Assembly (NCBI GenBank): GCA_010093995.1
Contig: ML992501.1
Location: forward strand, 2,747,194-2,811,193
Direction: 5' to 3'
DNA: 64,000 nucleotides
Source: Elsinoe ampelina
Lineage: Eukaryota
The notes under the pieces are model-generated. The model was given only the letters and a program-made list of their open reading frames with translations, was not told the origin of the DNA and made no database searches. Positions 25,589-51,773 of the stretch are shown one piece after another. Position 1 is the stretch's first letter. Every line of letters starts with the position of its first letter. The translations under genes and the position numbers were made by a program.

Positions 25589-25791
25589 TAATTACGACTA
25601 GTAAGATAAGAAGTTAATTACGTTTATTTATTAAGATATTAAGACTTAGAAGAAGAAGAAGAAAGCTAGTATATAAAGTATATATAATATTAAGAGCAAA
25701 GTAGCTAGAAGCCTAAGCTACGATACTAAGATTACGTAACTAATCTAAACTAGATCCTAACTAAATCTAGTTTGTAATCTATCTTATATTA
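25589..25791 (-). repeat. 3' LTR of Gypsy A1
   Basis: 203 bp, TAATA..TAATTA (RIP-altered TG..CA), preceded on - strand by PPT AAGAGGGGAAGTAG. Confidence 0.92.
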
Positions 25792-26370
25792 CTACTTCCC
25801 CTCTTAAACGCGTTTACTCTTAAACGCTATTATATATTATCTATTAATCTATCTCGGCCTTAACTTATTTATATAAGAGTCTAGATAGTTACGTAGCATG
25901 TTAGCTACTTCTTTAAGATTGTTAATTAGCTACTAGGTAAGATTCTTTAGATAGCCTTTCTAGCTTATATAAGTAACTAGCTTCCCTTATAGTATACGTA
26001 TATTAATTATATTATCTACCTCGTATTTCTCTTTACTATTAACTTCTACCGAAGGTAGTTTATTAAAGGCTTAGCCTAGTAGAGAGTTATTTAGGTACTT
26101 AGTAAGAAGGTTAGTATAGAATACTAAGTAGATCCTTTATAGCGTAGCTAGTAGATTAAGCTTATATACTAGCGGTAATTATTTCTTAAGGATCTTATAG
26201 AGACTAATATGCTTTAGTAGTAGCTTTAGATTACTCTATAGCTAGAGGTTCTTTGTCGATAGCTAAACTAAATCGCCTACCTTAAACTCTATTAGCTAGT
26301 AGTACTTATTAGCTTATTCTACTATCTATAACTAGGTAATAGCGAGGTTAGCCTTAGTAATAGCTAGTGC

Positions 26371-26685
26371 NNNNNNNNNNNNNNNNNNNNNNNNNNNNNN
26401 NNNNNNNNNNNNNNNNNNNNNNNNNNNNNNNNNNNNNNNNNNNNNNNNNNNNNNNNNNNNNNNNNNNNNNNNNNNNNNNNNNNNNNNNNNNNNNNNNNNN
26501 NNNNNNNNNNNNNNNNNNNNNNNNNNNNNNNNNNNNNNNNNNNNNNNNNNNNNNNNNNNNNNNNNNNNNNNNNNNNNNNNNNNNNNNNNNNNNNNNNNNN
26601 NNNNNNNNNNNNNNNNNNNNNNNNNNNNNNNNNNNNNNNNNNNNNNNNNNNNNNNNNNNNNNNNNNNNNNNNNNNNNNNNNNNNN
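26371..26685. other. Assembly gap (315 N) within the A1 integrase region
   Basis: Run of N. Confidence 1.
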
Positions 26686-28809
26686 ACGTAGAAGAATAAT
26701 AGCTTAGTAGTCTTAAACGCTAAAGTACTACCTTCTCTAGAGAAGTATAGGATTAAGTACTGTTCCTTAGATAGGTAGTCGACGACATAGAGTACTACGT
26801 TATAGCTATCTACTAGAGGTAGACTAGTAATAAAGTCTATAGTAATATATTACTATAGTCTTACCGGAATAGGCAATAGTAATAGAAGGCTAGCTAGTAA
26901 GCTATAGCGAGCCTTTAAGCGCTTATAGTTATAATAGTTAGCGACGAACCTCTTAATATTACTTTTATCTAGGGATATAGAAAGTAGACTTAATTATAGT
27001 AGCTATTTTAGTAGCTCCTTTATATATATAATTCTTTAATATATAGACTTCTTAAATAACCTTTACGGCTATAGAGAAAGGCACTATTAACTAGCTAGTA
27101 GTATATAGTATTTCTTTCTTAATTATAACATTAGTTAACGGCAACTATTTCCTCTTTAGAAAGGCTTCTATTATATAGTAGATGCCTTAAGCTAACTCGA
27201 ACTTAGTGTCTTATAAGTTAGCCTTAGCTACCTTATTAAAAAGGGGTAAAGGCTCTTCTATAGTCGAAATAGGTGCTATATAGATGCCTAGTTCGATAGC
27301 TAAAATAGGCACTAATATAGAGGGCGAAATAGGAGGTAAACTAGGAGGTAAAATAGGTAATAAACTAGATAGCGAACTAGTTCGCGAACTAGATACTAAA
27401 CTAGATCTTAGTTCGGCTTAGATTAGTAATTTAGTTCGGATACGACCTAGATTTAGTTCGTCGATAATGTACTAATCTAGTACCTTATATAGTAGTAGTG
27501 TCTAGTATAGATTAGAGTTTTCTTTTAAACGTAGTATATCTCTATTCCTTCTTATAAGTGCGTCGGCCTTACTATTAGTAGCGCTAGGCCTATATATAAT
27601 CTTAAAGTTAAACTACACAAGGTAGAGAGCCTAGCACACTTAGTAGCGTAATAGCTTCTAAGTCTTTATAAAGTGTATTAAGGATTAGTAGTTAGTAAGA
27701 ACGTAGATAGCCTTATTAGATTAAGTACTTATAAGCTTAGAGGCCTACTCCTTAAAGGCTTAGACGATAGCTAGTAGTTCCTTATTATAGATAGTATAGT
27801 TATATTTAGCTTTATTTATAGATTTACTAAAAAAGGTAATAGGCTAAAGAATATTAAACTTATTATATTACGATAGAATTCTAGCGGTAGTAGTATCGGA
27901 GGTGTCTATCTTAAGGACTATCTATTTTGAGTAATTAAAGTATATAAGAGTAGGCGCGCTTATAATAGTATACTTTATATAATTAAATATAGTAGTATAC
28001 TTATTGTTCTATAGTATAGCGTCCTTCTTAAGTAGATTATTTAGTAGCTTAGCGATAGTACTAAATCCCTTAATAAAGTAGTAATAGTAGCTATAGAAAC
28101 TAATAAAGCTTCTTACCTAAGTAGTATTACTAGAGGCTAGCTATTTCTACGCCTATATAGCTTCTACCTTCTTAGGATCTATCTTAACTCTATCTCGGCT
28201 AATAATAATACTAAGATACTTTACTTCTATTAGGTAGAACTTACTCTTTTTAATATTAGTATTTAGGTCTAATTTATAGAGCTACTAGAGTACTAGCTTA
28301 ATATACTTAGTATACTCTCTATAAGTGCTATTAGTATAAATAAGAATATTATTAAGATAGATTAATATAAAGTACTCTAGTATATTAATAAAGTTATAAT
28401 TTATAAATCTCTACTATACTATAGAGGCATTAGTAAAACTAAATAGCATTACTAACTACTTAAAGTTACTTATATATATAAAGAACATAGTAAGATCTTT
28501 ACTAGAGTAGTCGTAGAGTTAGGAATAACCTACCTAGGGTAGAGTTAGGTAGACTCTACTTAGCACGCTAGGTAGGGTAGAGTTAGGGTATATTAGCGTA
28601 GGGTAGAGTTAGGGGTAGGTAGTAACTTATTAGGAAGCCTCTTAACTCTACCTACTACTAACCTACCTCTATAATTGTTAGGTCTTATATAAGCAGCTAT
28701 TACTTAGCCTAAATTTTGCTATTATATATATAATTTGTAATTTATTTAGAATAGAAATAGCACTAATTATAGTCTCTAATTATAGTATTCTATACATTTA
28801 ATTGTTGTA

Positions 28810-31468
28810 TTTTAATGTTATTCTATATCCTCCTAGATAATCTTATACGCTTTACTAGAGGCTTATAGTTGTTATTGTTACTATCTTCCTTATAGTTGCT
28901 TATATTAAATATACTTTCTTAAGTAGGTAAGTTAAATAAGTTATCTACCTCGTCTAGTGCCTTATCTATATAGCTACTATCGATAGGATTACTACTTAAT
29001 AGAGATAGTCTAGTTATAAGCTTTATAATTACAAGCCGCTAGATTATTTATATAGAGAGTTAGTGTCTTCGATTACTAATAATATTCTTTGCTATATTAA
29101 ACATGCGTTCGATACTAACGCTAGCGATTAGTATAGTAAGAACATCTCGAGCAACTTTAGTAAGCTATAGGAAGTCTTTCTCGTTGTTCTTCTACTAATT
29201 AAGCACTTTAAATCCTAGTATACTCCGGACTAGAGGGATATTAAGGTAGTCCTTACCCTCTTAATAAGTAGTTTAAGAACTCTCCTATTAATCCTAGATT
29301 GCTAAGCTAACGTTAGACTAGAAGCTAAAGCTTATCTAGGGAGAGGTAAGCTATATAGATAACCGAGGTTGACGGAACTAATTATCTTTGTCTTTAAGTA
29401 GAGTTATAATACTTAGGGTCTTAGGTAGACTATCTAGGGAAGGTAGTTTACTATTATAGCAACTAAGGTAGTTAAGAAATTACTTACAATACTTAGCCTT
29501 ATTAGATTTCTCCTAGGTGTTGTTCTATGATATAATTAGCTTACTATAAGAATATATTTATAAGCTACAAACCTTATAGGGGGTTAGCTTTTATATAGAG
29601 TCTAAGACTATACTACAATTAAAGAGGTACTCTCTCTCGTTATTAGTACAATTATAGTACTTTAATAATTTATCTCGACTATACTCCGCTACAAGTCTAA
29701 CTACTTTAGGCTAAGGCTTATTATTATTCCTCTCCTTGTCTATAGCGCTATCCTCTATCTTATCGAGGAAGTTAAATAGACAATTATACATTAACTAGAT
29801 ATATGTAATTAGTAGGCGGCTAATAGTACTTAACTAAGTAGTTACTACCTTAAAGTTCTTAAGCATCTTTGTTACTAGCTTAAGGTGTAACTACTCTATA
29901 CTATTAAGCTAAAGACGTTTAAGATCCCTATAATCCGGATTACTAGTATTAGTACTAACTAAGTCAGGTCCTATACTAGTAGAACTCTTTATTATAATCT
30001 CCTATTTAAGCTATTTGTCGATAAATAGTCTAAGCTTAAGACTACGCTTGTATATATTAAAGGTTAAGTTCTACTACGTCTTAATGTCTTAAATAATAGC
30101 CTTACGCTCTCGAGGTATTATAGCTTATTAAAGGGTTATAAACCTCTTAAAGCGTTAAGGTAATTAATTAATAGTAATATAGGTTATATAGAGCTAGAAA
30201 TTAATTAGACTATAATTAAAAACTATAATTAAAATACTAACCTTACGAAGTAAGTTTAGCACTAAAAGTTTAGTAGAGATCTTTCTTAAGTACTGCCTTT
30301 TAAGCCTAGTAGCTTGTTTATTCTCCTTAGTAGTCTTAAGGTTAAGGTGCTTAATAATGTTCTATATAACAAGATTAATAATATGTGTAAGGCACGGAAT
30401 AGTGTTTTCTTATGCACTCTATGTAATACCTACCTGCCTAAGAAGCCTTTATACTATCTTACGTAATGTACGGTTGTTACTTGCATTGTTAGCGGTAATA
30501 GCGAGGAGTCTATCCTAGAGATTATAGTGCCGGAGTGTCCGTACAAGTTTAGTAGCTATATTATAGCCTATGTATTAACCTCGAAGTAGTACTATATCTA
30601 ACAATTGTTCCTAGAGCTACTATTAGTTATTAATATAATAAGCTTTAATTATAATAAAGCCTAAATGATTGTTTATAGACTAGCTATTAAGGGCAATTAA
30701 GACCTTTATTGTCTTATTAAGATCTTATAATAACGTTTAATAGAGGTTTTTAAATTCGTTATTAAAGAGAGTAGCGAAGTAAGTGTAGCTTAGTATAAAT
30801 ACTCCTAGGTGTAGGAACTATATAAACCGTTAGAAGGATAGTTACTCGATAGTACGAAATGACTAATTATAGTCTACTACTATTCGAACAAGCTCTAAGT
30901 AGAATTAAGTAATTAAATACAAGAGAACATTTTTCTAATTAATTACTAGACAACTTCGAAGCTATATAAGTGCTTAGTCTACTAGATTATAGGCCAATTT
31001 CGTAACCTTAGTATAGGTCTTTATATCCCTATAATTGCTTATTATATTTATACCTTACTTTAATAGTAATAGGTAAGTAAGTGTATTACTACACTATAAG
31101 TAGTAAACAAATAGACGTCTATTAGATACCTATATAGCTTCTCTAAAGTATGCCTATACTAATCTAGTTCTTAGTGTTAAGTTCTAGTTTAGTAGGCTAT
31201 ACTCCTTAGAGAAGCTATAGCAAGATACCTATAGTATTAAGTTCTACTACTATAGAAAGCTTTAAAGATCTACTTATTCCTTAGCAAATATCAAAGAATT
31301 AAGCATTAGACACTTAATAAGGTACTATAGTATAGGCTAACTACCTCTATTACGTTGTTATATAGTAAAGTAATAACTAGCTAGATCTTAGGGGACGGGG
31401 ACTACTATAATTAGTAGAGTTAATAGAAGACGTAATTATAGATTAATTAGATTATCGAAATCCGCTAT
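28810..31468 (-). pseudogene. hAT transposase of element C (boundaries approximate)
   Basis: RIP-altered IAL(D)S(W)S ~30690, LAITA(D)NASNN ~30490, IPCLTHIINL ~30390, and dimerisation domain FP.L.KVARDVL.I.IASVSIERMFN ~29100-29200. Confidence 0.88.
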
Positions 31469-31799
31469 AGTAGAGTATAGAGGTTATATAACTTGTATTA
31501 TTAAACAGAAGTAGTATAGGTATTTATAATAATGCTACAATTTTTTAGCTAAACAAATTTAAAATGTTTAGATAAGTAATATATTTAAGTTTAGACTATT
31601 AGAAAGTCTTCTCTATAATTACTTTACGTAAGGTATTTAAAAACGCGCTAGTAGCCCCTAAGTAATTATAAACATTAATCACTAATATCGAGGAAGGATT
31701 AAGGTATTATTATATTATATTATTATAGTAAAGAAATTCGTTACTCTACCTATACTATTTCTCTAGTATAAGCTACTACCTAAAACTCTAATCCTTAAC

Positions 31800-32325
31800 T
31801 AACTACTAACTATAAACTTCTAATAGTAGCGCTTAGCAAGGCTAGAGTCCTTATAATTAATAGTAATATACTTAGCATAGATAGCGTTAAGGTTTATATC
31901 TATAAATAAGTATTAATCGAGGTTTTAACATATATTAAATAGACATATACCTTCTATGTATCTAACAATAAATACCTCTACTAATTCTTAGAGAGCTCTA
32001 AGTACATTAGCTATCTAGCGATTAACCTTAAGAGTAAGCTATATATCTTAGGATATCTTATAGATAAGGCAAGAAAAGGGAAGTTTATAGAATAACAATT
32101 AGACATTCTTCTAGTAGTAACAAATCTCGTAGAGAGTAATAGCTACCTTCTATTAGTTCTACTCTATAATTAGAAACTGTAATAAATACTACCGGGCTTA
32201 AATCTCTACTTCTTTCTAGGCTTAGCCTAGGATTATAGTGTCTTCTTTATAGTAGGTTACTTCCCTTTATAACTTCTTTCTCTAGAACTAGTAGTAGCTT
32301 AAGGATAACCTTTTTTACGTACTAT
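31800..32325 (-). pseudogene. Histone H3-like gene, copy C (RIP-mutated); introns 32189-32143 and 31950-31900
   Basis: Literal RFKPG|T, EI..Y*K, KLPFS.LI, AL*E..E.FIV.Y.E|D.NLNAI.AK..TI..KD..LAKR; reversing C>T/G>A gives [54 protein letters not shown]. Confidence 0.88.
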
Positions 32326-32666
32326 AGTAAAGTAAGAGGTTGTTTATATATAGCTAAGAAGTTAAAGTTTATATATAAAATTTTAGTATATATAAAATAG
32401 TAAAAAGAAGAGGCTAGAGTAAGGAATATAAAACCTATTATTAGATACGCTATTTACTATTAATAATAGAGAATAATAGGATAATAGTAAATAACTTATA
32501 TAACAATAGCTTTCTTATTCCTTACCCTAGCTTCCTCTTTTATTATTTTATACATTTATAAATTATAAATTTCTAACTTTAACTTTCCCTTTATACCTTT
32601 ACCCCTTTTACTTACCTTATGTATAATTCATATACTACAAATACTCTTTTTATTACCTTTAATTAA

Positions 32667-33935
32667 ATATCTATACCTATAAAAGACATTAAGATAGAGT
32701 AGAAAGAGTAGGTAGTAATTAAGTAGGAAGAAGATAGTAGAGAGAATATTCTAAGGGAATTATTAGGGGTATTAATTATAGTTTCTTATTATATATAGTT
32801 ACTAACAATACTAGGGATTTAATTCTAAGTAGTAGAAAATTAAACACTAAATCTCTTAGCATAGCGCTAGTTAATCTAGAAAGGGCTATAAGACTAGATT
32901 TGTCGCTAGACACTCTAGACCTCTAAGTTAAAGCGCTTATACTATTAAGTAAAGAGATTATACTTCTTAGCGCACATATAAGAAGTAAGCCCTCTATACT
33001 ACTTAAGTAGTAGATCGTAAAGCTATTAGTACTTTATGTAACAAGATTAAGAGAGAGAATAGGTAGGATTAGCTCTCTACTAAAGAGTAGAATATTAGAA
33101 TTCATAATACTATCGAAGATATAGAGGAGAAACGCTTTAATAAATAGAGGAGCGGTAAGTCTATTATTATAGTATACTATTATAGTAGTACTAATCGTTA
33201 TAGGCGAGTAGCTTAAATTTATATTTATATAGACCTATAAGAAATAGACTAGCATTAGAAAGACTCTATAAAAGCAAGAGTATAATAAGATTATTAAGCA
33301 TATCTAAGATAATATAGCAGTAAATTAGTAAGGCAAACAACAGCTAATATAAGCCTATATATATATCTATAGTACTAGTAGTATTATTAAGAAGCTATAG
33401 TGCAAAATTTACTAGGATAGCTATATAAGCCTTGTTACTAACGACACTAATAATAAGTAGGCATATAAGATTTTTTTTAAGTAGCTTAAAGAGCTCCCTT
33501 CTATAGAATTAGTAGTGTTATAGGATCCTAACTAGTAGTAAGTTTATTATAGTCTTTAATTATAGTATATTCTAACAATTGTATAGGCTAGTTGTTCCTC
33601 TACCTCCTAAGTATAAATACATCTCCGAGCTTAAACTCTATAGTACTAGGCTATACTATAAAGGAGATAATAATAATAAGTGTAAGGAGAAAATTAAGAA
33701 GAATAAGAATAAGATCGAAAGGATGTTAGATAAGGAAGCTAGTAATAACGAGGATTATTATCTAGGTATTAAAGTTAAAGATAAGTCGGATAGTAAGGAT
33801 AAGAATAATAAGGTTATAGAGCACTCCGAGCTTAAGACTAATAGTAATAACAATAATAAGGATAAGAATAAGAATAACAATATAAAGGATAAGAATGCTA
33901 CTAAGGTTAAGGATAAGGAGATATCTAATGCCTAG
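32667..33935 (+). pseudogene. Unknown cargo gene X, copy C, with acidic (RIP-reversed D/E-rich) C-terminal tail; start approximate
   Basis: Intron-containing; homologous to 37399-38719; ORF 33579..33935 is its N/K/D-rich last exon. Confidence 0.72.
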
Positions 33936-36249
33936 ATATAATAGGGATTAAAAGTATAATTCTATAAGTAGTAGTATTAGAGAATATAGTTTATAATTAG
34001 AATCTATTATTAGTAATTATACTCTGTTATTTTATGTATTACTAATAACCTATAGAGTGTAAAATTCATAACTCTACCCTAACCTACCCCTTAGCTTAGC
34101 TAACCCTAACTCTACCTACTCTAGCGGGGGTTAGCTAAGCCTAGAGGTAGGTTAGGGTAGAGGTAAGTTACTTAGAGAAAATTCTAACTCTACTCTACTC
34201 TACGACCACTCTAATCTTTACTATTAATAGAGTTATAGAAGTAGTAGAAGGCTTAATAGATGTTAATCTTACTAAACTATTTAGCTTTACTTACGCGTAT
34301 AAGTATTTCTTCAATAAAGAGTAAAGAATAGATATCTTACTTAGTTACCTTATTAAGGCTATAGTAGTTAATATAGAGATAGAGTTCTCTACCTAGCTTA
34401 TAAATAAAGAGAATAGGTAAGAAATAGCTAGTAGAACTTAATATAATAAAGCCTTTATTAAGATATTCTTAGATAAATTATTCTACTATATTAAGTTCTT
34501 CTAGTAATAGGTAGTATAAAAGCTCTATATATAGTAGCTTAGTACTATCTTTAAGTATAATATAGTTATTAAAATCCAGCCGATACTAAGGAAGTATATT
34601 AGATTATTCTTTAGAGAAGATATTAGTAAACTTCTATAGCTCCTCTAGGAGAACTACTATAGGATCTAGTTCTAGCTTAGAAACTATCTAGTAGTAGTCT
34701 TTAATATTCTTTACTAAGATTATAAATACCTTATTCTTTTAGTATTTAGCTACTAATATAAAGGTAGCTACGCTAATAAAGGTAATAGTTAGCTTTTCCT
34801 ATTTAGCATTACTTATATAGGTAAGTAAGTAGAAGAACTTATATATTAATTAAGTACTATAGGAGATTAGCTTAAACTCTCCCTAATTTAGCTTAAAGTT
34901 TAACCTAAGAGCTAGTAGCTAATATAGTCTAGTTCGTCCTAACTTAGTAGCTAAGCTAGAACTTAGTTTACAAGTTAGACTAGAACTAAACTAGTTCTAA
35001 ACTAGAGTAGTAGCTTTACTAAGCTAGATTTCTAGATCTAAGCTAGGCTTAGATCTAGATTCTAGTCTTTTAATTAGCTATAGTAGCTCCTACTTAACGA
35101 CAACTAGTAAAAACTCTTCTTTATACGTAACTTAGCTATACTTATAGTTAATAGTAGCTCTATTAGCTTTAAGCTAGCCAAGGCTAAGAATAATATTAAA
35201 ACGGCTAATATCTATAATATAGAAGATAGTAAAAGTATTTAGCTTACTAGAGATAGTAGTAGTAAGGGAAATGCTATAAGTAACTTACTCTATTAGAATA
35301 CTATTATAAGTCTAAAGCTAAATAGAGCTAGCTAACGCTATAGGGCAGCTAAAGCTCTTTAGCTTATTAAGGACGTTATAATTAACTATAGCGCTAATAA
35401 GTGCACTAGTATTAATAAAGGCTTAGAGCGTAATAGTATAAGAGTAGTTATAAGAGTTATAAATAGTAATAGGAGTTATAATAGTAGGGATATAGTAGCT
35501 AATAACGCTATTTAGTAACTATATATCTCTAGATCTATCTCGAATTACTCTTATTTCGCTAGAGAATAGAACTTATTCTCTAGCTACTTATTTCTCTAGC
35601 TAGAGTAGCTAGTAGACTTATAGTCTATTTTAGAGTTAAACTAAGGCTAAACTAGATCTAGTTTATAGGCCGAACTAGTGTCGACCTAGTTACTTAATTC
35701 GGCTAAGCAATTCTAAAGCTACTATATCTCCTCTATAGCGCTAATATATATAGGGTATATAGTAGTATAAGTAGCCTTCTCTAAGGCGCTAGCTATATAC
35801 TTAGTAGAGATATGTCTAGGCTTACTACATATATAATAGGTAAGTGCTAGAGCCGGACGGAAAGGCTTAGGGTAGTTTTTAGGTTAGGTTAGGTACTAGA
35901 ATTGCTACCTATAACCTAACCTATAGCGATACTAGTACCTAAAGCTTAGCAACTATAACCCTCTAAGCCTTAGGTAGTGTTACTTAGCCTTAGGTATATA
36001 GTTAGTTATAGTGTTGCTTATAACACTACCTAATAGTACCTATAGGTGCCTAAGAGTCGAGGAGTAGATATATATCTTAAGAACTTAAGATTTAGAAATT
36101 AAAATTTAAAAGTTAAAGGTTATAATTATGTTTATTAATTACGCTAATCTTACTAGCACCTCCTATCTACTCTTATAGCCTACGCCTTACTTGCTTATCT
36201 ACCTTTATAGAATAATTGTCCTTACTATAAACTGTCTAATTGTCCTAGT

Positions 36250-36779
36250 TATATGTATTAAACTTTATATAATAGCAACAAGTAAGCTATAAATCTTTCT
36301 AGTTAATAGTAACTTACTTAGCATAAATACAATTAAGGTTTATATCTAAGAATATTAGTATCTATAATAGTATTAAATTTAAATAATAGATACCTTCTAT
36401 ATACCTAATAATAAATGCCTCTATTACTTCCTAAAGTGCTTTAAGAGCTTTAGATTAGATATAAAAGCTTTTGTCTTAACAAATATAGCCTCTAATAATC
36501 TTATAGATAAGGTAGCTAAAGGAGAGCTTATAGTAGAGAAGTTTAGTTAACTTCTAGTAGCGACAAATCTCTTAGAGGGCAATAGCTATATAGTATTAGT
36601 AATATAATATAATAATCAATTGTAATAATTATACTACTAGCCTTAAACTTGTTCTTCTTTCTAGAAGTAATAGTTGTCTTATAAGGTTACTTAGTAGTAG
36701 AAGCCTTAGGTCTACTAGACGACTTGCCCTTATAACTACAACTATAGGTTAGTACTATAGTACCTCTCTTAGGAGGCAT
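36250..36779 (-). pseudogene. Histone H3-like gene, copy D (RIP-mutated); introns 36634-36586 and 36393-36346
   Basis: ATG CCT CCT AAG start; literal KFKAS|TIAL*EICRY*KLTKLL..KLSFS.LI.KI..*SKALKAL*E..EAFII.Y.E|D.NLNCI.AK*VTIN*KDL*L, an H3 histone fold after RIP reversal. Confidence 0.9.
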
Positions 36780-37398
36780 AGTTACTATTACTACTAAGGA
36801 TAGAGTCTTAGGAGGTGCTTATAATATAAAGTAATTTTACAGTAGTAAGAGTAAGGTAGTAGAGGGCGTAGAAAGTAACAAGGTAGATATAGTAGTAGTA
36901 TAAAGAAAGAGAAGTAGAAAGAGAAGAGGTAAAAGAAGTAGAAGAAGAGAAATACGTAATAATTTAGTAGCTAGTAATAGCACGGCTAACAATAGGAATG
37001 TAATATTATAATAGAAATATAAAATTAGTAAATTAGAAATGTATAGTGTATAGAATACTTGCTTATTATAATATTATTTATAATAGTAAGGCATATAATA
37101 TTAGATTTGTTCGAACGCTTAGAAGAAGAGGAATCTAGATATTATAGAGTACTAACAATAAGTACGTAATAATCTAGCGTAATAATACAATACTAATTTA
37201 GTATACTATAATTCTTAAAAACCTTATATTTTATATTTTATATTCTACTCTAGCTACCTTATTGTTACTTTATATATAGTAGGAAGCTATATTACTCTCC
37301 TCTATTCTCCTTCTTCTTCTATTAACTTTCTTTCTTCTTGTCTCTACTACCCTTTTATTTCTACGCTCTTAAGTTTAACTTTTATATCTTATTTTACT

Positions 37399-38719
37399 AT
37401 AGTAACCTCTCTAGATACTCCTATAGCTAATATACCTTCTAATACCTCTCCTAGTAGCTCTCCTAAGATTAAGAATAAGTTTAATAAGTTCGAAACTATA
37501 ATAGAGATAATTATTATAGCGTTTTATTACGAGTATTAAGCTAATAGGTATAGGGCTTTAGGTCTAAGTAGGCTAAAATCGAATACTAGATCCTTTAGCG
37601 TAGTTAAGGCAGCAAGGCACATCACAGTTGTCTAACTAGTTTTAAAGCAGGTTTAAGTAAGCCTTTAAAGTAGAATATTTAGAACATTATACACTAAGAT
37701 AAAGATACTTAATAGTCGGCTAAGGTTAAGGCACTTAAAGCAGCTAGAGATGCCAATTATAGCATAAAGAGAAATTTGCTTAAGAAGTTTAATATAAATA
37801 CTTAAGTCTAGAACCTTAGTAAAGAAGCAAAGGTAGAACTCCTTATAGAAAAGATTAAGGAAATAAAGTAGCGCCGTTTTAACGCCTAGTAAAGCTATAT
37901 AATTATACTACTATATTATTACGTTTAACACTAATAGATTATAGATAAATAGCTATCTAGTAAGTTTAGAAAAGTCTATGTTAAATAGTAGCGTATTAGA
38001 AAATTTGCTATACGTTAAGAGTATATAGAAGTTCTTATAAAGGCAAAGGTAGCTTATACTACTAAGTCTAGCGAGGAGAATAATATGTTAAGAGTAGCTA
38101 AGTAGATATATAGTTCTAGCGGAATTCTCGAGAAGCTTAAGTATAAGATCTATATAGCTAGCGCTACTAAGCTTACTATTAATAAAGGTACTAACGAGAA
38201 TGCTAAGAAAAAGTACTTAAAGTTTGTCTAGAAACTTAGTAAGGAGAGTAGGCTTACTACTATCTCCGATCCTAACTAGTAGTAAGTTCTCTATTATTAT
38301 TACGTATTATTATTACGTTAGTATACTAATAAATAGCAGGGCTTATAATTCTATGCCTCTAGCTAAGTATTAACTACTCGAGCTAATCTATCTTATAGAT
38401 AAAGGTAAATATATAAAGCCTAACAACAATAACAAGTGTAAAGAAGTATATAAGCTAGACTATAACTCTAAGATCGAGAAACTAGCTAATAAGTACAAGA
38501 TAGATAAGTAGTATACGAAGTTTAAGGGGTTTTCCTCTAATAAGAATAAGATTATTAATAAGAGAGAGAGAGTTAAAGTAGAGAGTTCTTTAGAAGGTAG
38601 AGATAAGGAGGAGAATAATAATAAGAATAATAATAAGAATAATAATAAGAATAATAATAAGGAAGGGGATAAGGAAATAGTCGATACTAAGGAAGATAAA
38701 TTTACTAGATTTAACTAGT
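37399..38719 (+). pseudogene. Unknown cargo gene X, copy D, with acidic tail; boundaries approximate
   Basis: Shares F.SKQ.KIEHQI.Q.S..T.F.A..S.PL.Q..I..RD, RF(D).W and DPNW|gtaagt with copy C; AATAATAAG run at ~38610-38660 reverses to D/E. Confidence 0.72.
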
Positions 38720-39793
38720 GGATTTTCTATACTATAATCAACTACTAAGTAGTTTAATCTATAGTATAGTCCGGCCCTTTTATAGATTTAAGTTTTATAA
38801 CAAGATCTCTTCCTATATAGCTACTATTGTTATTTATGCTTCTAATTGTTACCTCTAATAATAGTAAATTATCTATATTATTACTTCTAACGATAGATTT
38901 CTATTACTATTGTTGCTATAAATAATAGGAAGTACTAGATATATACGCTATCTCGTTCCTATTTATTCTTCTTTCTAAAACCTCTCTTCCTTATTATTAT
39001 AGCTTCTCGCGTATAACTCTATTCTAACCTAGAAGATCTAATCCCCTACTAGCCTTATGCTATAACTCGTAGTAACTGCGCTAGGCTACTATACTTACGT
39101 TAGTATAAAGCTTATATCTACCGTATAACTAAGTAATTTATCGATAGCGAGGAAAGGTAGACTACTTATATCTATAATAATAATAGAGGCTCTAAACTTC
39201 GCTATAAAGCCTATCGCTCGTATAATACCCCTTGTAACTTTATTAGTATTCCTAATCTAATACTACTATATTCTCTAATAAGTATTAGTATAACAGCTCC
39301 TAGACTAATAATATTTTTAACCTTATCGACATATAGTATACACTTAATTGTTACTATCTTAATCTTATCCGAGATTAGATTATAATCTTTAATATACGCC
39401 GTAGTATTAAACGCTAGTAGAACGAGCTAGATAATTCTAAATCCTAAGGATCTTAATAGTTCTAATTCTTCTAGTAACTAGTTTAGTAGTATAATGTAAA
39501 TAAAGCGTTAGCGGGCTAATAGCTTTAGTAGGTTTTTCATGACATAGATATGCTTTTAATTTTAAAAATTTTCTACCCTACCCTAACATAGATATGCCTT
39601 TAATTTTAATTATGTTACCTATTCCTTAGCCCCTATATAATATAAGTCTAGCTTATAGAAATTGATATACCTCTTGCTTTAAAGTTTCTATAGTATAGTA
39701 TAGGATTTATTATTACGTATTATAAATACGTTAATAAACATTCTATAACAAGTTATCTACCTTTATTAAATAACATAATCTACACTAATCGAC

Positions 39794-42460
39794 ATGTCTA
39801 AAGCTTCTAACTTTAAGTCGGTACTCGACCTATAACTTAGAGATACTATATATTTCTCTCTAGCTATTCTAGTAGAATTATATAGCTTTATAATCTCCGC
39901 TTAGAATATTAGACGTAATAGTAGAATATGACAATTATAACTCCTTAAATGCTTGCCTTTTTAACCTAGTAAGAGATCTAAGGATTAACCTCTATAATAA
40001 GCCTAGAAAGACTAGTAGAGTCGAACAATTATAGTATCTATATATAGAGAGAGCATAAAAAATATACTAAATTAGAATTCTAAAGCACGTTCTAGAGGTC
40101 TATAGGCAAATATTATAGAAGCTACTAAGATTTACAATAGAGAACTACGAGTTATTTATAATAGGTATAGTAATATACTTACTTATCCTACTTACTATTA
40201 CACTAGTAATAAAGCAATAGAGAGACATCTTAAGTTCTAGAAATACACTATAGTTATTAAGTACCGCTACGAGTAAAGCCCTGCCTAAAAAGCCCTTAAG
40301 TAATTATAATAGTATATAAAGAGCATTTACTAAATTGTCTCTCTATTCTCTACTAACATCTTCTACTATAAGCTTGTTCGCGTAGTTACTAACTATAACT
40401 AGTCTTTCTACATAGTTAAGTATCTTACCTTTAGCTAATTCCTCCGCTTCCTCTAACCTAATATTACTATACCTAGCCGGACTCTTTTTTAAGCGACACT
40501 AGTAGCATAATTTAAGAAGTTACAAAAATCGCTACTCTCTAACCTCGGTAAGAACACTAAGCTTTTAATAGCGTTAGATAGATAGTCTACTAATAACTAC
40601 TTAGAGTTTATTATAATTAAAAGCTATTTTATTAATAACTAATAGCAATTATAAGAGTAGCTCCTAGAAATAACACTCCTTCGAGGTTACTATACTAGTA
40701 AAGCTATAGTAAATAAGGTAATATAGGTACTAAAAGATATATTAGTTAAGCAATAACTACTCGTAGTTATAGCAGATAATATATTAAACAATAGAATACT
40801 CCGAGAGTCTCTCGAAAGAAGCCTAGGTATACTAGATATTAAGTAAAATACAAAGGAGAATACAATTCTACGCCTAGTATATATTATTAATCTTGTTATA
40901 TAGGACATTATTAAGCATCTAAAACTTAAGACAAGCAAAGAGATTAACATAGTAGAGAGGTTATAAAACTACTATATCTAGGATATTATAATATTAGTCT
41001 CTATCCCGAATTTACTATAGAAGGTATATAACATTTATTATATTGTTTTATTACGTCCTAATGTTAGTAAGCTCTACATAATATATATTATAATTAATAG
41101 TTCTCTATAATAGTTTAAACGATTTATAGACCTCTAGAAGCATCTACTACCTAAGAAGAGATACTAAGTTATACGTGATATTAAGACACGCTAGAATTTA
41201 ACATATAATATATATAAGCGAGTATTAAAGCTTAAACCTTTTATTAAGGATTAGCTTAAGAATAAGACTACGCTCTAAGTACCGAGGACTTCTTCTAAGG
41301 TATTAATATCTAAACTACTCTCTAATGTTAATAACTACGACCTTACTAAGTTATTACTTAATCTAAATAAGTAGTAGCATCTTAAATCTGTTATAGTAAT
41401 ACTAGAGAACTTTAAGAAAGCAACAATATAGCTAAGTACTAGTAGCCGACCTCTTCTCTAGTATATATAGACAATGTATAATACACTCTTTAACTTCTTA
41501 GATAAAATTAAAGAGGGCCTAATTAGCACTAAGGATTATAACAATCTACCTACATAGCTAGCTACTATATAAAAGGTAGTAGTAAAGGGACAAGAGAAGC
41601 TTAAGAAATACTATACGTAAACTAAGGATAGGAAGGATATACTCTATAACTATATAACAATTCTTAACCCCTCTAAGAAGCTTATAGCATATAATGTAAA
41701 TACCTATAGTCTTTCTAGTAAGTAGTAGCTAATAATACTTAGGACATAGAGACTTAGGAACCTTACTATAAAGACTACTATTATAAGGAGTTCTTATAGT
41801 ACCTTCGTTAGTATAATAAGATAGACCCCTTAATTGCTTTACTAGCCTCTACCCCTAAGCTATTATATTACTAGCAATAAGACTAGTTTAACCGACTAAA
41901 ACAAAAGGAGCAAAGTTACGCTCTATTACTATAAAGCGATAGTCTATACTTCTTATTTGTTCCCTCGAAGCGTACTATAGTTAAAGAAGGTAAGGACTAC
42001 CTTACAACACTACCGGTCTATATTTAGAAACTTAATGTCTTATAGTAGTAGAAAGAGAAGAAGGAAGAATATCTATTACTATTATATATAGCAAAAGATA
42101 TTCTAGTAATCCTAATTATAGAGGTTAGAGTTAAGTAAGTGTTTAACATTACAAAGGATATTATTAGTGCGTAGAGGTATAAATTAGTAGCCTAAACTAT
42201 TTAGTAGCTTATAATGTTAAAGTATAAGCTTAAAGTAGCCTCGCTATTAGGACGGATTAATATAGAACTAGAGATAGAGGATAAGGCTACTAATGCTAAT
42301 AATTTACTTAAATTGTTATTAAGGACTAATATAAATTAACTAGACGATATTACTATAGTACTAAGCTATAGTAATAATAACTACTCTAAATTAGAGAGAG
42401 AGAGAGCGTAGAGAGGTTAATAGTATTCTAGTAGAAAGCGTCGGCGGATTTACTAGCTAG
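39794..42460 (+). pseudogene. hAT transposase of element D (boundaries approximate)
   Basis: V(T)ADN..NN ~40770, I(PC)L(AH)IINLV ~40870, RDIKTR(W)N(S)TY ~41180, (WW)KEK..Y..L..IAKDIL.I.I.EV.V(ER)VFN ~42050-42150. Confidence 0.88.
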
Positions 42461-44220
42461 ATTGTATTTGTACTTCTAGTATAATTTATATATTTAACTT
42501 ACTACCTCCCCTTACATAATAAAGTAGCGTAATAAAGTTAGGCCTAAAAATTTGTAAGGTATAGTAACGCGCTAAGCTATAGAGTAAGCGCTTTAACTAC
42601 TAACCTATTAGGTACTATTAGGTAGGTACTAGGTTAGGTACCCCCCCCCCTAAGAGCGACACTATAACTATATACTAACTCTACCTACCTTAGTATAGTA
42701 CCTAACCTAGAGTAACCTCTCTCTACTAAGCTTTTGTACCTAACCCCTACCTAATATAGTACTATATCTACCTAAAAACTACCCTAGAAAGGCTATAGAG
42801 TACCTCTAGTAATAGAGTAAAAGGTAGATAGAGCTATAGGTATAGAGGTAAAATAACATATATAAGTAAGTATAGTAGTAGTATAGCTTATAGCTAGTAT
42901 AGAACGTAAAGCCTAAGTACGCTTAGTAATAAGGTTATTCTATTAGATGTTATAGTTAGTAGCGTAGGCCTTAGTAATAAAGATAGTAAGGTTGTTAGTA
43001 TTATAGTTAACTAGAGTATTACGTAGCTTATTAGATATCTTCTAATAGATCTAGTATAGCTACTTCTCTTTAGCGATCTTAGTATAAAGGGTATACTTAT
43101 TAAACTTACTAATAAAGAAGTTAAATATACTATTATACTAGAAGAGGTTAGCGAACTAAGTATATATAGTAGCTCTATAGTTAGGATTCTCGAAGCGCTA
43201 GGCTAGGAGAGTAAGGACCTCTTTAACGCTAATAACGTTGTTACTAGCTAAGTCTATAATAAGGGTATAAGCTTCTCTAGAGAGGCGTAAGTATAGATAG
43301 GTAAACTAGGTATCTCTTATAGAGAAATAATCTATATTAGTGCATATCTTATTCCTTATCTAGTGCTTAAAGACCTTAAACTACTCTAGTATACCTATGC
43401 TAAAGATAGTAGGGTCTAGTATCTTTTCTAATAAGGTAAAGCTACGTATAGAAAGGGCTAGTATACTATACTCTATCTCGTTTCTTAGTTAGTTTACCTT
43501 AGCCTTAAGCTCTTAGATTTTGTCTAGGTAGTATATAGCTTAGGTAGTAACGCTATTAGTATAGGACTAAGATATATCTAGTTCGGATTAGAGGTTACCG
43601 AGCTAGGCCTAAGTAGTATCTAACTTATAGTAATAGTAGAAAGTATTAGTATAAGTGTCTTTTACCTATATAGTTTACTTATTATAGAAGGACTTAATAT
43701 ATTTAAATACGTCTCTTAGTGCCTATATACTATACTTTTCCTATAGCTTCTTAAGAAGTATAGTGTTAGAAAGAGCAAAAAGATTATAGTAAAGAGAGTA
43801 GATAAAGGTATTATTATTATTAGAAATAGGTTAAGGTAGCTTACTTTAGTAGTGCTCTTTATTGCTATAGTTAGATCGAGCTATACTTAGTATAGTTAGT
43901 TATAAATATAATAGTAGAAAAAGTTAATATATAATAAAAAGAGTATTTAAAAATTTAACTAGTAGCTTACTTTCTTCTTAAGTTATTTATAACTTAACTT
44001 ATTACCTTCTTCTTATATTTATAGTTTATAGTATTAAATTATATAGTAGTAGCAAGGATCTATTATAGTATACGTAGGAACTATAATTATAATAGCTTCT
44101 TCTTTAATTCTTTAATTCTTTATAAGTAGTAGTTATTAGTAGTTATATAAGTAGTAGGATAACTAGATAGTTTAATAGCTCTATTACTTAGTTATAGTCT
44201 TTTTTAAAGTCTTAATATAG

Positions 44221-44423
44221 TAATTACAACTAGTAAGATAAGAGGTTAATTATATCTATTCGTTAAGATATTAAGACTTAGAAGAAGAAGAAGAAAGCTA
44301 GTATATAAAGCATATATAATATCGAGAGTAAAGTAGCTAGAAGCCTAGGCTATAATACTAAGATTACATAACTAATCTAAACTAGATCCTAACTGAATCT
44401 AGTTTGTAATTTATCTCGTATTA
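44221..44423 (-). repeat. 5' LTR of Gypsy A1
   Basis: 203-bp match to the other A LTRs. Confidence 0.92.
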
Positions 44424-44988
44424 CTTATAATTAGTTTAGGTACTATAGATATAATATAGAGTAAATAGAGTAAATAGTATAAAGATAGAAGTAAGGTTAA
44501 GCTTACGAAAAAAGCGCTAAGTCCTTATTAAAAACTCTATACTACTAGTACTATAAGCCTATACTACTCCGCTAGCTTATCTAAGCTAGATTATACTATC
44601 TAGTTCGGTAGCTAAGTTAGATTATACTAACTTATACGCCGAGATAGAGCGCTATCTAGCTTAGCTACTAAGATAGAGTATTTTAATATTAGTATAAGAG
44701 TAGTAAATTAGGCCTATCTCGGCTACTAAGCTAGATAGCCTATAGCTATGTTAAGTTAAACTCTTTAGCTTTATCCTCTTCGCTTAAAGGCTTAAACTCT
44801 AAAGGCTTCTACTACTTCTTAAACCTTAATATCTCTCTCTTAATCCTTATAAGTAACTTCTCTTTTAAACTCTATAACTTAGTCTATCTCTTCTTTAACA
44901 CCTTATAAATACTATTAATGTTAAATTTAGTATCTCTTAGGTAGTAGAAGGCTTAATTAAGCGCTATACGCTTACTCTTAAAGGCTAG

Positions 44989-45191
44989 TAATACGAGATA
45001 GATTACAAACTAGATTTAGTTAAGATCTAGTTTAGATTAGTTATGTAATCTTAGTATTATAGCCTAGACTTCTAGCTACTTTACCTTCGATATTACGTGT
45101 GCTTTATATACTAGCTTTCTTCTTCTTCTTCTAAGTCTTAATATCTTAATAAATAGACATAATTAACTTCTTATCTTACTAGTTGTAATTA
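44989..45191 (+). repeat. 5' LTR of Gypsy A2
   Basis: 203 bp TAATACGAGA..GTAATTA. Confidence 0.92.
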
Positions 45192-48100
45192 CTATATTAA
45201 GACTTCGAAACGACTATAACTAAGCAATAGAGCTATTAAACTATCTAGTTATTCTACTACTTACGTAACTACTAATAACTACTACTTATAAAGAATTAAA
45301 GAATTAAAGAAGAAGCTATTATAATTATAGTTCCTACGTATACTATAATAGATCCTTGCTACTACTATATAATTTAATACTATAAACTATAAATATAAGA
45401 AGAAGGTAATAAGTTAAGTTATAAATAACTTAAGAAGAAAGTAAGCTACTAGTTAAATTTTTAAATACTCTTTTTATTATATATTAACTTTTTCTACTAT
45501 TATATTTATAACTAACTATACTAAGTATAGCTCGATCTAACTATAGCAATAAAGAGCACTACTAAAGTAAGCTACCTTAACCTATTTCTAATAATAATAA
45601 TACCTTTATCTACTCTCTTTACTATAATCTTTTTGCTCTTTCTAACACTATACTTCTTAAGAAGCTATAGGAAAAGTATAGTATATAGGCACTAAGAGAC
45701 GTATTTAAATATATTAAGTCCTTCTATAATAAGTAAACTATATAGGTAAAAGACACTTATACTAATACTTTCTACTATTACTATAAGTTAGATACTACTT
45801 AGGCCTAGCTCGGTAACCTCTAATCCGAACTAGATATATCTTAGTCCTATACTAATAGCGTTACTACCTAAGCTATATACTACCTAGACAAAATCTAAGA
45901 GCTTAAGGCTAAGGTAAACTAACTAAGAAACGAGATAGAGTATAGTATACTAGCCCTTTCTATACGTAGCTTTACCTTATTAGAAAAGATACTAGACTCT
46001 ACTATCTTTAGTATAGGTATACTAGAGTAGTTTAAGGTCTTTAAGTACTAGATAAGAAATAAGATATATACTAATATAGATTGTTTCTCTACAAGAGATA
46101 CTTAGTTTATCTATCTATACTTATACCTCTCTAGAGAAGCTTATATCCTTATTATAGATTTAGCTAGTAATAACGTTATTAGCGTTAAAGAGGTTCTTAC
46201 TCTCTTAGTCTAGCGCTTTAAGGATCCTAACTATAGGGCTACTATATATACTTAGTTTACTAACCTCTTCTAGTATAATAGTATATTTAACTTCTTTATT
46301 AGTAAGTTTAATAAGTATGTCTTTTACGCTAAGATTACTAAAGAGAAGTAGCTATACTAGATCTATTAGAAGATATCTAATAAGCTATATAATACTCTAG
46401 TTAACTATAATACTAACAACCTTACTATCTTTATTACTAAGGCCTACGCTACTAACTATAACATCTAATAGAATAACCTTATTACTAAGCGCACTTAGGC
46501 TTTACGTTCTATACTAGCTATAAGCTATACTACTACTATACCTACTTACGTACTTTATTCTACCTCTACGCCTATAGCTCTACCTACCTTCTACTCTATT
46601 ACTAGAGGTACTTTATAGCCTTTCTATCTAGCTCTAGTACTTACCTATTACGTATATAGTAAGCCTAGATATATCTCTACTAAGTATATAGCTAGCGCCT
46701 TAGAGAAGGCTACTTACGCTACTATATACTCTATACGTATTAGCGCTATAGAGGAGATATAGTAGCTTTAGAATTGCTTAGCTAAATTAAGTAACTAGGT
46801 CGACACTAGTTTAGCCTATGAACTAGATCTAGTTTAGCCTTAGTTTAACCCCGAAATAGACTATAAGTCTACTAGCTACTCTAGCTAGAGAAATAAGTAG
46901 CTAAAGAACAAGTCTTATTCTCTAGCAAAATAAGAGTAATTCGAGATAGATCCGGAGGTATATAGTTACTAAATAGCGTTATTAGCTACTATATCTCTAC
47001 TATTATAACTCCTATTACTATTTATAACTCTTATAACTACTCTTATACTATTACGCTCTAAGCTTTTATTAATACTAGTGCGCTTATTAGTGCTATAGTT
47101 AATTATAACGTCCTTAATAAGCTAAAGAGTTTTAGCTACCCTATAGCGTTAGCTAGCTCTATTTAGCTTTAGGCTTATAATAGTGTTCTAATAGAGTAAG
47201 TTACTTATAGCGTTTCCCTTACTACTACTATCTCTAGTAAGCTAAATACTTTTACTACCTTCTATATTATAGATATTAGCCGTTTTAATATTATTCTTAG
47301 CCTTAGCTAGCTTAAAGCTAATAGGGCTACTATTAACTATAAGTATAGCTAAGTTACGTATAAAGAAGAGTTTTTACTAGTTGTCGTTAAGTAGGAGCTA
47401 CTATAGCTAATTAAAAGACTAGAATCTAGATCTAAGCCTAGCTCGGATCTAGAAATCTAGCTTAGTAAAGCTACTACTCTAGTTTAGAACTAGTTTAGTT
47501 CTAGTCTAACTCGTAAACTAAGTTCTAGCTCGGCTACTAAGTTAGGACAAACTAGACTATATTAGCTACTAGCTCTTAGATTAAACTTTAAGCTAAATTA
47601 AGAAGAGTTTAAGCTAATCTCCTATAGTACTTAATTAATATATAAGTTCTTCTACTTACCTACCTATATAAGTAACACTAAATAGGAAAAGCTAACTATT
47701 ACCTTTATCAGCATAGCTACCTTTATATTAGTAGCTAAATACTAAAAGAATAAGGTATTTATAATCTTAGTAAAGAATATTAAAGACTACTACTAGATAG
47801 TCTCTAAGCTAGAACTAGATTCTATAGTAGTTCTCCTAGAGGAGCTATAGGAGTTTACTAATATCTTCTCTAAAGAATAATCTAATATACTTCCTTAGTA
47901 TCGGCTGGATTTTAATAACTATATTATACTTAAAGATAGTACTAAGCTACTATATATAGAGCTTTTATACTACCTATTACTAGAAGAACTTAATATAGTA
48001 GAATAATTTATCTAAGAATATCTTAATAAAGGCTTTATTATATTAAGTTCTACTAGCTATTTCTTACCTATTCTCTTTATTTGTAAGCTAGGTAGAGAAC

Positions 48101-51053: not shown

Positions 51054-51256
51054 TAATATAAGATAGATTACAAACTAGATTTAGTTAGGATCTAGTTTAG
51101 ATTAGTTATATAATCTTAGCATTATAGCCTAGGCTTCTAGCTACTTCGCTCTCGATATTATATGTGCTTTATATACTAGCTTTCTTCTTCTTTTTCTAAG
51201 TCTCAATATCTTAATAAATAGATATAATTAACCTCTTATCTTACTAGTCGTAATTA
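51054..51256 (+). repeat. 3' LTR of Gypsy A2
   Basis: 203 bp, directly after PPT AAGAGGGAAAGTAG. Confidence 0.92.
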
Positions 51257-51773
51257 ATAAGCGCCTTTACTACTGTGCTAACTAACTCTATAAGCTAAGA
51301 ATTTGCTAAAAGATTAATAGCTAGAGGCTAAGTTATAATACTTCTTTACCTATGCCTTTAGTACCGAGAAGCTCTCCTTAATAGAATTAAAATCTAGTAA
51401 ATAAGGAGGTAAGTACTCGAGGTATAATCTATACTCTTTAACTATCCTTTATACTTCTTCTATATAGTAGATTAATATATTATCTATTACTATAATTGTA
51501 CTAGGCTCGAGTTATAGTAGTATAGTATACTCTAGCTAATCTTAGAAGATAAGGCCTATAATCGAGCTATAATAGATAAGCGTGCCTTTAAGGTATCCTC
51601 TAGTTATAATAGCTAGAAGTTAATATAAGATAGATACGAACTAGATTCAGTTAGGATCTAGTTTAGATTAGTTATATAATCTTAGCATTACGGCCTAGGC
51701 TTCTAGCTACTTTACTCTCGATATTACATGTGCTTTATATACTAGTTTTCTTCTTCTTCTTCTAAGTCTTAAT

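Follow-up and report, generated by a model that had tools for sequence, protein, structure and literature searches.

A histone H3-like gene disabled through repeat-induced point mutation in a hAT transposon of Elsinoe ampelina: probable origin from canonical H3 rather than CenH3

The subject of this analysis is a degraded histone H3-like (H3L) gene in a 64,000-nucleotide stretch of contig ML992501.1 of Elsinoe ampelina, referred to below as the window. The gene, H3L-B, lies within a hAT transposon, and a relative, H3L-A, lies within a second hAT transposon of the same window. H3L-B is very probably a pseudogene, disabled through repeat-induced point mutation (RIP), of an H3L family that forms a standing component of a hAT transposon lineage in Dothideomycetes; the family would have originated from canonical H3 and diverged later. 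A preliminary description of the gene had drawn attention to its likeness to CenH3, the centromeric H3, and had proposed that it derives from or converges on CenH3 and could be a centromere-targeting or decoy histone. All the sequence features on which this proposal was based are present in the window, but comparison with related sequences supports neither descent from CenH3 nor centromere targeting, and the reading as CenH3 is best dropped. A RIP-degraded hAT element with an H3-like gene is already known, and since such elements were in print between 2010 and 2019, the specific finding is ordinary. The part worth pursuing consists of by-products at the family level, namely the introns, the co-travel with a transposase and an N-terminal tail that lacks K9.

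H3L-B is a three-exon gene on the minus strand (36248-36779; Table 1). As described previously, it begins with an ATG (36779-36777) that reads M-P-P-K and continues into a tail that is not of the ARTKQTARKS type. Without intron 1, frames 1 and 2 would not be connected. Intron 2 splits GAA G/AT, that is E105/D106, which is the interruption that the preliminary description had recognised, and the residues downstream of it read I-N-L. Position 68 is Ser (AGC, 36517-36515) in place of Gln, and position 84 is Ile (ATC) in place of Phe, both in agreement with the earlier reading. Loop 1 counts 11 residues from K/E73-I74 to the residue aligned with R83, compared with 8 in canonical H3. The length reported earlier is therefore correct, with a caveat for the loop-1 Arg: the aligned codon in H3L-B is TAT (Tyr), so that a reading as Arg takes a two-step RIP reversal, and CGC (Arg) is found only in H3L-A.

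The histone identity of the gene can still be detected. Exon 2 matches Pfam PF00125 with E=4.3e-5 and 24.2 bits, slightly short of the 26.4 required for gathering. When the gene was translated through its stops, written as X, phmmer matched 173 chains of the PDB (best E=4e-8). All of the 60 best matches listed are H3 or engineered H3 chains, one of them an H3/CENP-A chimera, and these 60 include neither a plain CENP-A nor a plain Cse4 chain. ARTKQTARKS, Gln68, the 8-residue loop 1 and Phe84 are all missing from both window copies, and H3L-B is a divergent derivative, not canonical H3. It is also a pseudogene, since it has nine in-frame stops, all of them TAA or TAG. These stops and the RIP indices of the H3L-B stretch (TpA/ApT 1.79; (CpA+TpG)/(ApC+GpT) 0.35) bear out the earlier assignment to RIP. 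The gene lies in a 40-kb AT-rich block with a GC content of 0.30 and indices of 1.99 and 0.20, compared with 0.53, 0.49 and 1.32, respectively, in the GC-normal and presumably gene-bearing part (window 1-24000). H3L-B was killed by RIP and is unable to give a protein today.

H3L-A has an exon/intron layout identical to that of H3L-B, its 50-nt intron being located at the site of H3L-B intron 1. It contains 12 in-frame stops and its start codon is now ATA; the first codons read I-V-R-K-K, for which a CpA-type RIP reversal permits M-A-R. Ser68 and an 11-residue loop 1 are found in both copies, as is Asn110. The C-terminal tail reads RYY*KF in H3L-A and CCYYIKF in H3L-B. At position 84, H3L-A has TAG, for which the possible RIP sources are TGG (Trp, the CenH3 state) and CAG. 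Nucleotide identity between the two genes is 72%, or 83% with transitions collapsed, and the transposase parts of the two elements are 80% identical with transitions collapsed. The elements are thus diverged relatives rather than recent copies. Some 80 bp upstream of the H3L-A start is a near-perfect palindrome (32388-32555), with arms (32403-32462 and 32482-32541) that are 83% complementary, or 87% with transitions collapsed; the self-comparison of the window revealed nothing equivalent in element B.

In both elements, A and B, the H3-like gene is located between the terminal inverted repeats (TIRs), beside the transposase. The elements have the hallmarks of the hAT superfamily, i.e., a target-site duplication (TSD) of 8 bp, short TIRs (17 bp, beginning TAG(A/G)GT) and a transposase with the hAT dimerisation domain PF05699. 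With RIP stops read as X, this domain was matched in element A (E=1.6e-10, 41.1 bits) and in element B at about 41992-42225 (E=5.3e-5, 23.4 bits), in both cases above the gathering score of 21.4. In tblastn, open reading frames (ORFs) of an intact metagenome locus introduced below (L002) matched element A at E=1.7e-41 and 7.5e-29, and element B at E=1.1e-34 (40340-41026) and 4.3e-18 (41210-41722). Element B is presumably the element D of the preliminary description.

The window was compared with itself after transitions had been collapsed, to look past RIP. A host repeat, E, is present in three copies, one of which is broken twice, by elements A and B, and the uninterrupted copies carry each TSD word once. 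Both elements, each with an 8-bp TSD, thus inserted into a single copy of a repeat that is older than they are. Both were then mutated C-to-T and G-to-A by RIP, with the result that neither H3L gene can make protein.

Only the transposase, the H3L gene and two short central pieces can be aligned between elements A and B. Relative to the transposase, the H3L gene and the two central pieces form a block that is inverted in one element with respect to the other (31813-32220, 32764-32865 and 33776-33892 in A; 36259-36665, 37502-37604 and 38541-38657 in B), while the termini are equivalent. Either the block was inverted within an element, or an element consisting of two modules was rearranged independently. 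A Pfam scan of 3.5 kb in the centre of element B found no family. Repeat E and its neighbours (25589-28502, 34214-35867, 42787-51259 and 58590-63551) are nested together as direct and inverted copies that are 83-96% identical or complementary, and 98-99.9% with transitions collapsed. A Pfam scan of one repeat E copy (3.5 kb, 45200-48700, stops read as X) found no family.

Table 1. Positions of the H3-like genes, the two hAT elements and host repeat E (window coordinates)
Feature	Coordinates	Strand	Remarks
H3L-B exon 1	36779-36635	-	N-tail, MPPK start, phase-1 end
H3L-B intron 1	36634-36586	-	49 nt, GT..AG, TACTAAT branch-like site, phase 1, codon matching H3 G44
H3L-B exon 2	36585-36394	-	alpha-N end to alpha-2; Ser68, loop 1 +3, Ile84
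H3L-B intron 2	36393-36346	-	48 nt, GT..AG, phase 1 in D106 codon
H3L-B exon 3	36345-36248	-	alpha-2 end, alpha-3, C-terminal YY.KF motif, TAG stop
hAT transposon B	35868-42786		6919 bp; holds H3L-B; insertion into repeat E, precise junctions against two uninterrupted copies
Element B TSD	35860-35867 (left); 42787-42794 (right)		8 bp, GAAAGGCT
Element B TIRs	35868-35884 (left); 42770-42786 (right)	+ (left)	17 bp, TAGGGTAGTTTTTAGGT; 17/17 complementary
Element B transposase	40340-42225	+	RIP-degraded hAT
hAT transposon A	28503-34213		5711 bp; holds H3L-A
Element A TSD	28495-28502; 34214-34221		ATCTTTAC
Element A TIRs	28503-28519; 34197-34213		16/17 complementary
Element A transposase	29026-31171	-	RIP-degraded hAT
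H3L-A	31799-32325	-	Second RIP-killed H3-like gene; exons 32325-32193, 32142-31951, 31899-31799; introns 50 and 51 nt
Repeat E, piece between both hAT insertions	34214-35867		Window self-comparison
Repeat E, other pieces of interrupted copy	28000-28502; 42787-44203
Repeat E, uninterrupted copies	near 45208-48773; 58860-62247

Relatives of the window genes were sought in protein and metagenome collections. A blastn comparison with phage records, of little relevance here, gave no match. The RIP-damaged sequence returned one candidate in a word-indexed protein search, and none was scored. A full HMMER scan of 1.84 billion representative proteins, made with a profile built from both window translations, gave 2021 matches at E<=0.001. 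The best of these include intact or unspliced H3-like proteins, and the H3L genera that can be named are Alternaria, Boeremia, Didymella, Parastagonospora, Pyrenophora, Pyrenochaeta, Massariosphaeria and Paraphoma (Pyrenophora tritici-repentis, Massariosphaeria and Paraphoma came from later searches). The proteins share Asn110, the motif DCN(I/L)NAIHAKRVTIQ.KDS and a C-terminal (R/H)YY.K(F/Y/L). Asn110 is present in 14 of 14 H3L rows of the alignment and in none of the 15 CenH3 or 14 canonical rows; the C-terminal YY.K(F/Y/L) motif and the D106 intron are likewise common to H3L and the window copies and foreign to both CenH3 and canonical H3. Unspliced H3L predictions contain an in-frame insert precisely at FE/D. 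The family motifs used here (Asn110, (R/H)YY.K(F/Y/L) and the phase-1 intron in the D106 codon) are a description made in this work, not a published definition.

A metagenome scan with the H3L protein P0232 identified the locus L002, which contains an intact H3L gene with a sole intron of 45 nt in the D106 codon. On the opposite strand of L002 are the ORFs that match what is left of the transposase in each of the window elements (E=1.7e-41 to 4.3e-18). A second contig, L001, corresponds to the L002 locus minus seven GT-AG introns, including that in D106. The D106 intron, which is present in L002 and removed in L001, is therefore real, conserved and apparently spliced. In L001 (1-1920, aligned with L002 3653-5978) the H3L ORF lies behind a 1.4-kb leader built of six upstream exons. 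The introns of this leader are all GT-AG on the H3L strand; it is without a long sense ORF and is antisense to acidic ORFs of the central region. It may be a long 5' untranslated region or an antisense regulatory transcript.

CenH3 proteins are diagnosed by the absence of Gln68, a loop 1 longer than that of H3 and the replacement of Phe84, typically by Trp. In the alignment, all 14 canonical H3 rows have Gln68, an 8-residue loop 1, Phe84, Thr107, Cys110 and RRLRGERS, while the CenH3 rows have a loop 1 of 10-13 residues and, in 14 of 15 cases each, Ser or Ala at 68 and Trp84. Among the 11 H3L rows with a full loop 1, Gln68 is lost in 10 (Ser or Ala in nine), but loop 1 has the canonical 8 residues in 10 and Phe84 is kept in eight. 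Only a Pyrenochaeta protein, with a loop 1 of 10 residues and Ile84, resembles the window copies. These counts make the loss of Gln68 a trait of the family, and the long loop 1 and the loss of Phe84 traits of a sublineage. Gln68 would have been lost family-wide, and the longer loop and the loss of Phe84 would have come later, in the sublineage that comprises the window copies and Pyrenochaeta.

Phylogenetic analysis of the histone fold (60 rows, 100 columns) was carried out with RIP-ambiguous codons masked or with raw rows. The two window rows fall into a branch with the 14 H3L rows and one further row, supported at 100/99 in the masked and 99/99 in the raw tree. The CenH3 branch, which contains 15 rows from Pezizomycotina and yeast, is supported at 99/98 and excludes the window rows. 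In the raw-row tree, the nearest intact protein to the window copies is P0045, from Pyrenochaeta. The tree also contains H3-like ORFs, mostly from metagenome contigs (P0012, P0019, P0026, P0028, P0029, P0061, P0077, P0086, P0094 and others), that have an unspliced insert at D106 and are placed between H3 and CenH3. Some of these are more CenH3-like than H3L-B; for example, P0012 has Ser68, an 11-residue loop 1, Trp84 and RRLRGDKA.

Judged on sequence comparison, the most likely source of H3L is canonical Pezizomycotina H3, present as a genomic copy, and not CenH3; H3L would then have diverged while travelling with the transposase. Seven of eight H3L tails match the canonical H3 tail (z 5.1-12.3). 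P0232 is identical to it at 23 of the first 29 residues, and one tail, which begins MARTKQKASKSTGGKAP, is canonical-like (MARTKQKASKSTGGKAP...KAARKS). Loop 1 of Boeremia H3L, AQDFK(S/P)DL, is the same as in Pezizomycotina H3. The M-A-R start that RIP reversal permits for H3L-A also agrees with a canonical ancestor. Gln120, the Pezizomycotina H3 state, is found in 10 of 13 H3L rows compared with one of 15 CenH3 rows, CenH3 having Met120. The C-terminus of H3L is RYY.KF, as opposed to RRLRGAWGGLG in Pezizomycotina CenH3. Intron 1 appears to point in the same direction. ORF-style predictions of canonical Pezizomycotina H3, read-through proteins of other fungi, shift frame just ahead of GTVALREI, which would place an intron of canonical H3 in the G44 codon, matching the site of intron 1 in the window. 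Predictions of the same kind for CenH3 run uninterrupted across G44 and D106, and CenH3 would therefore lack both H3L introns. The preliminary description had proposed a comparison of intron positions with host genes; made in this way, with read-through ORFs and not host genes, the comparison fits canonical Pezizomycotina H3 and not CenH3 as regards intron 1. A D106 intron of canonical H3 was not seen in the read-through ORFs, and no canonical Pezizomycotina H3 gene was among the 80 loci returned by the metagenome scan (best identity 78%).

Several observations make the distinction from CenH3 less sharp. The intron argument has a weak point, since the proteins that it draws on are read-through predictions from other fungi. 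Phe99 occurs in 10 of 15 CenH3 and nine of 13 H3L rows, and in none of the 14 canonical rows. Four of nine Pezizomycotina CenH3 tails begin with MPPK (and one more with MPPY), as do H3L-B and Boeremia H3L, and the Boeremia H3L tail scores z 9.5 against one CenH3 tail compared with z 7.9 against the canonical tail. Ser or Ala at position 68 is common to CenH3 and H3L, at the frequencies given above; being found in nine of 11 H3L rows, it does not by itself discriminate CenH3. The histone-fold tree groups H3L with canonical H3 at only 90/66, so the deep origin is not resolved. In the approximately unbiased (AU) test, forcing H3L together with CenH3 is only 0.86 log-likelihood units (lnL) worse (p=0.469) and is not rejected. 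Forcing the window copies alone together with CenH3 costs 7.8 lnL (p=0.163) with masked rows and 25.1 lnL (p=0.066, borderline) with raw rows, and is disfavoured but not formally rejected. The AU tests were run four ways, none of which gave p<0.05.

These observations bear on the proposal that the cargo descends from the host CenH3 and that intact relatives target or mimic centromeric nucleosomes. In its favour, H3L-B has Ser68, a loop 1 of 11 residues (within the 10-13 of Pezizomycotina and yeast CenH3), no Phe84 and an MPPK start; the TAG at position 84 of H3L-A could stem from the Trp codon TGG as well as from CAG, and the AU tests leave a position next to CenH3 unrejected. However, the window copies are nested within the H3L clade, whose members mostly retain the canonical loop length and Phe84, so the two features that had been taken as signs of CenH3 are not characteristic of the group to which the genes belong. 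The canonical-like tails, the RYY.KF C-terminus, Gln120 in place of Met120 and, to the extent that read-through ORFs can be relied upon, the absence of G44 and D106 introns from CenH3 also speak against this descent. Manning 2013 (PMC3538342) aligned the H3L of P. tritici-repentis with CenH3 and placed it in neither the H3 nor the CenH3 group; the literature searches listed no other paper that links hAT-borne H3L to CenH3. Descent from CenH3 is accordingly very unlikely. Even less probable is a functional convergence, in which the sublineage of the window and Pyrenochaeta would have gained CenH3-like loading via the CenH3 chaperone without CenH3 ancestry. Ser68, a loop 1 of 10-11 residues and Ile84 do coincide in this sublineage, but position 84 is Ile and not the Trp of CenH3, the loop-1 sequences are unlike CenH3 loops and the C-terminal tail differs. 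Furthermore, long loops and residues other than Phe84 are shared by other divergent H3-like ORFs in the alignment, which indicates that such changes are common among them. The CenH3 diagnostics would then be positions that are prone to change in any H3 freed of canonical constraint, and alone they are no sign of centromere function.

Given a canonical origin, the question is whether the gene has a role in the element. The published view is that H3L is a pure passenger, an H3 gene transduplicated by a hAT element, with no role and with odd residues that are due to drift and then to RIP. Both Manning 2013 (PMC3538342) and Dhillon 2019 (PMC6710886) describe a captured housekeeping gene and mention drift. 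The window copies, which are dead, agree with this: the transversions between H3L-A and H3L-B, which RIP does not make, are distributed over the three codon positions as 18/13/17 in 90 codons, which gives no signal of purifying selection for the pair and counts against a functional role, and the exons differ about as much as the introns (48 of 270 sites compared with 11 of 49 and 6 of 46). On the other hand, intact H3L genes are present in at least eight named genera of Pleosporales, and they have kept an invariant Asn110, the YY.K motif, DNA-contact motifs such as AIHAKRVTI and the D106 intron. Tail residues 11-27 are strongly conserved beside the eroded residues 1-10. There are also the spliced, transcript-like contig L001 and the expressed sequence tags (ESTs) reported for P. 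tritici-repentis (PMC3538342), and the restriction of the alignable parts of elements A and B to transposase, H3L and two central pieces fits constraint while the lineages were alive. The introns of the window and L002 genes also clash with a reading as intron-less retrocopies, which was made for other species; conserved introns and co-travel with a homologous transposase across distant lineages do not fit a one-off retrocopy capture. A pure passenger is less likely than not. The alternative, that H3L is a long-maintained transposon gene for an H3 variant without K9 and not a captured passenger, is itself rather unlikely on present evidence.

This alternative is based on the N-terminal tail. 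Nine H3L tails were compared (P0232, P0308, P0309, P0296, P0303, P0269, P0213, P0024 and P0097). G12, G13, K14, K18, L20, A24 and R26 are kept in all nine and K23 and K27 in eight, while R8, K9 and S10 are kept in one tail each, K4 in three and K36 in two. The suggestion in the preliminary description of a histone lacking the normal K9/K27 context therefore holds for K9, whose context is also missing from the tail of H3L-B, but not for K27, which has its AARK context in eight of nine intact tails. The pattern at K9 was noticed post hoc, residues 1-10 contain indels that make their alignment uncertain, and the lineages are not independent, all of which counts against a functional role. With the R8-K9-S10 site lost, H3L would be unable to carry H3K9 methylation. 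The most likely mode of action of intact relatives, although at odds well below even, is that the transposon expresses H3L as a variant of nucleosomal H3 and that this variant, lacking K9, may blunt the heterochromatin-based silencing of the element. That a K9-less nucleosomal H3 aids the escape of the element from heterochromatin is proposed here at similarly low odds. Dominant Neurospora hH3 alleles, K9L and K9R, provide an analogy, by which H3L could lower silencing by heterochromatin and DNA methylation. RIP has a heterochromatin-linked branch, and H3L might weaken this branch as well. If H3L is indeed such a variant, the CenH3-like changes of the fold would be part of a divergence from canonical deposition and tetramer partners, and the window would contain two RIP-killed relics of a contest between transposon and host.

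Neither PMC3538342 nor PMC6710886 uses the terms H3K9, lysine 9 or heterochromatin in its main text. A histone encoded by a transposon and refractory to heterochromatin marking would, if true, represent a novel form of counter-defence by transposons, and the idea of a K9-less histone is directly testable with existing Neurospora H3-tail assays. What changes in the published picture is the presence of conserved introns, the co-travel with the transposase and, in intact members, the selective erosion of the K9 site next to a tail segment, K14-K27, that is conserved.

The closest known system is found in P. tritici-repentis, where a 5.6-kb hAT element has a transposase, a central ORF and H3L, with ESTs reported (Manning 2013, PMC3538342). 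The gene set is the same as in the window elements, which measure 5.7 kb (A) and 6.9 kb (B). The P. tritici-repentis protein P0303 has the KLPFSR, DCNINAIHAKRVTIQ.KDS and RY(Y/F) motifs in common with the window, and its unspliced form, P0154, shows the D106 intron. In contrast to the RIP-saturated window copies, which have 9-12 stops, the P. tritici-repentis copies are nearly identical to one another, intact and expressed. Their H3L, as read from P0154, has an 8-residue loop 1 and Phe84, whereas in the window copies the loop counts 11 residues and position 84 is Ile or a stop. Element A also differs from the P. tritici-repentis element in that the module of H3L and the central region is inverted relative to the transposase.

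RIP-degraded elements are also on record in Pseudocercospora fijiensis and five relatives (Mycosphaerellaceae), where there are hundreds of RIP-killed, hAT-borne H3-like copies (Dhillon 2019, PMC6710886), and in S. nodorum, where R25 is an H3-like RIPped repeat (Hane & Oliver 2010, PMC3017866). As in the window, the P. fijiensis and S. nodorum elements are of hAT type with an 8-bp TSD and short TIRs, the H3-like sequences occur only in AT-rich RIPped blocks, and premature stops are found throughout. The elements of Dhillon 2019 are about 9.5 kb long with one or two H3-like copies, which were read as intron-less retrocopies of canonical H3; compared by description only, they differ in this from the window genes, which have two introns. 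The second H3-like copy of P. fijiensis has a 16-amino-acid insertion that is absent from the host H3 (PMC6710886), a size equal to that of the 48-nt intron 2 of H3L-B. Judged by size alone, this insertion may be an unrecognised D106 intron.

Fungal CenH3 (e.g., P0039, the UniRef CSE4 of Lineolata rhizophorae) is similar to the window gene in lacking Gln68 and Phe84, in its long loop 1 and divergent N-tail and, in some cases, in an MPPK start. CenH3 has features of its own, which are Trp84, His102, Met120-Gln121 and a GAWGGLG-type tail, in addition to forming a clade of its own, while the window gene, which occurs in several copies within transposons, is marked by Asn110 and a tail of the YY.KF type. 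Features that canonical Pezizomycotina H3 shares with H3L are the histone fold, the TGGK..K.LA.KAARK tail, Gln120 and, if the read-through ORFs are a guide, the G44 intron. Canonical H3 is unlike H3L in having a tail with K4, K9 and K36, as well as Gln68, Phe84, Thr107, Cys110 and RRLRGERS.

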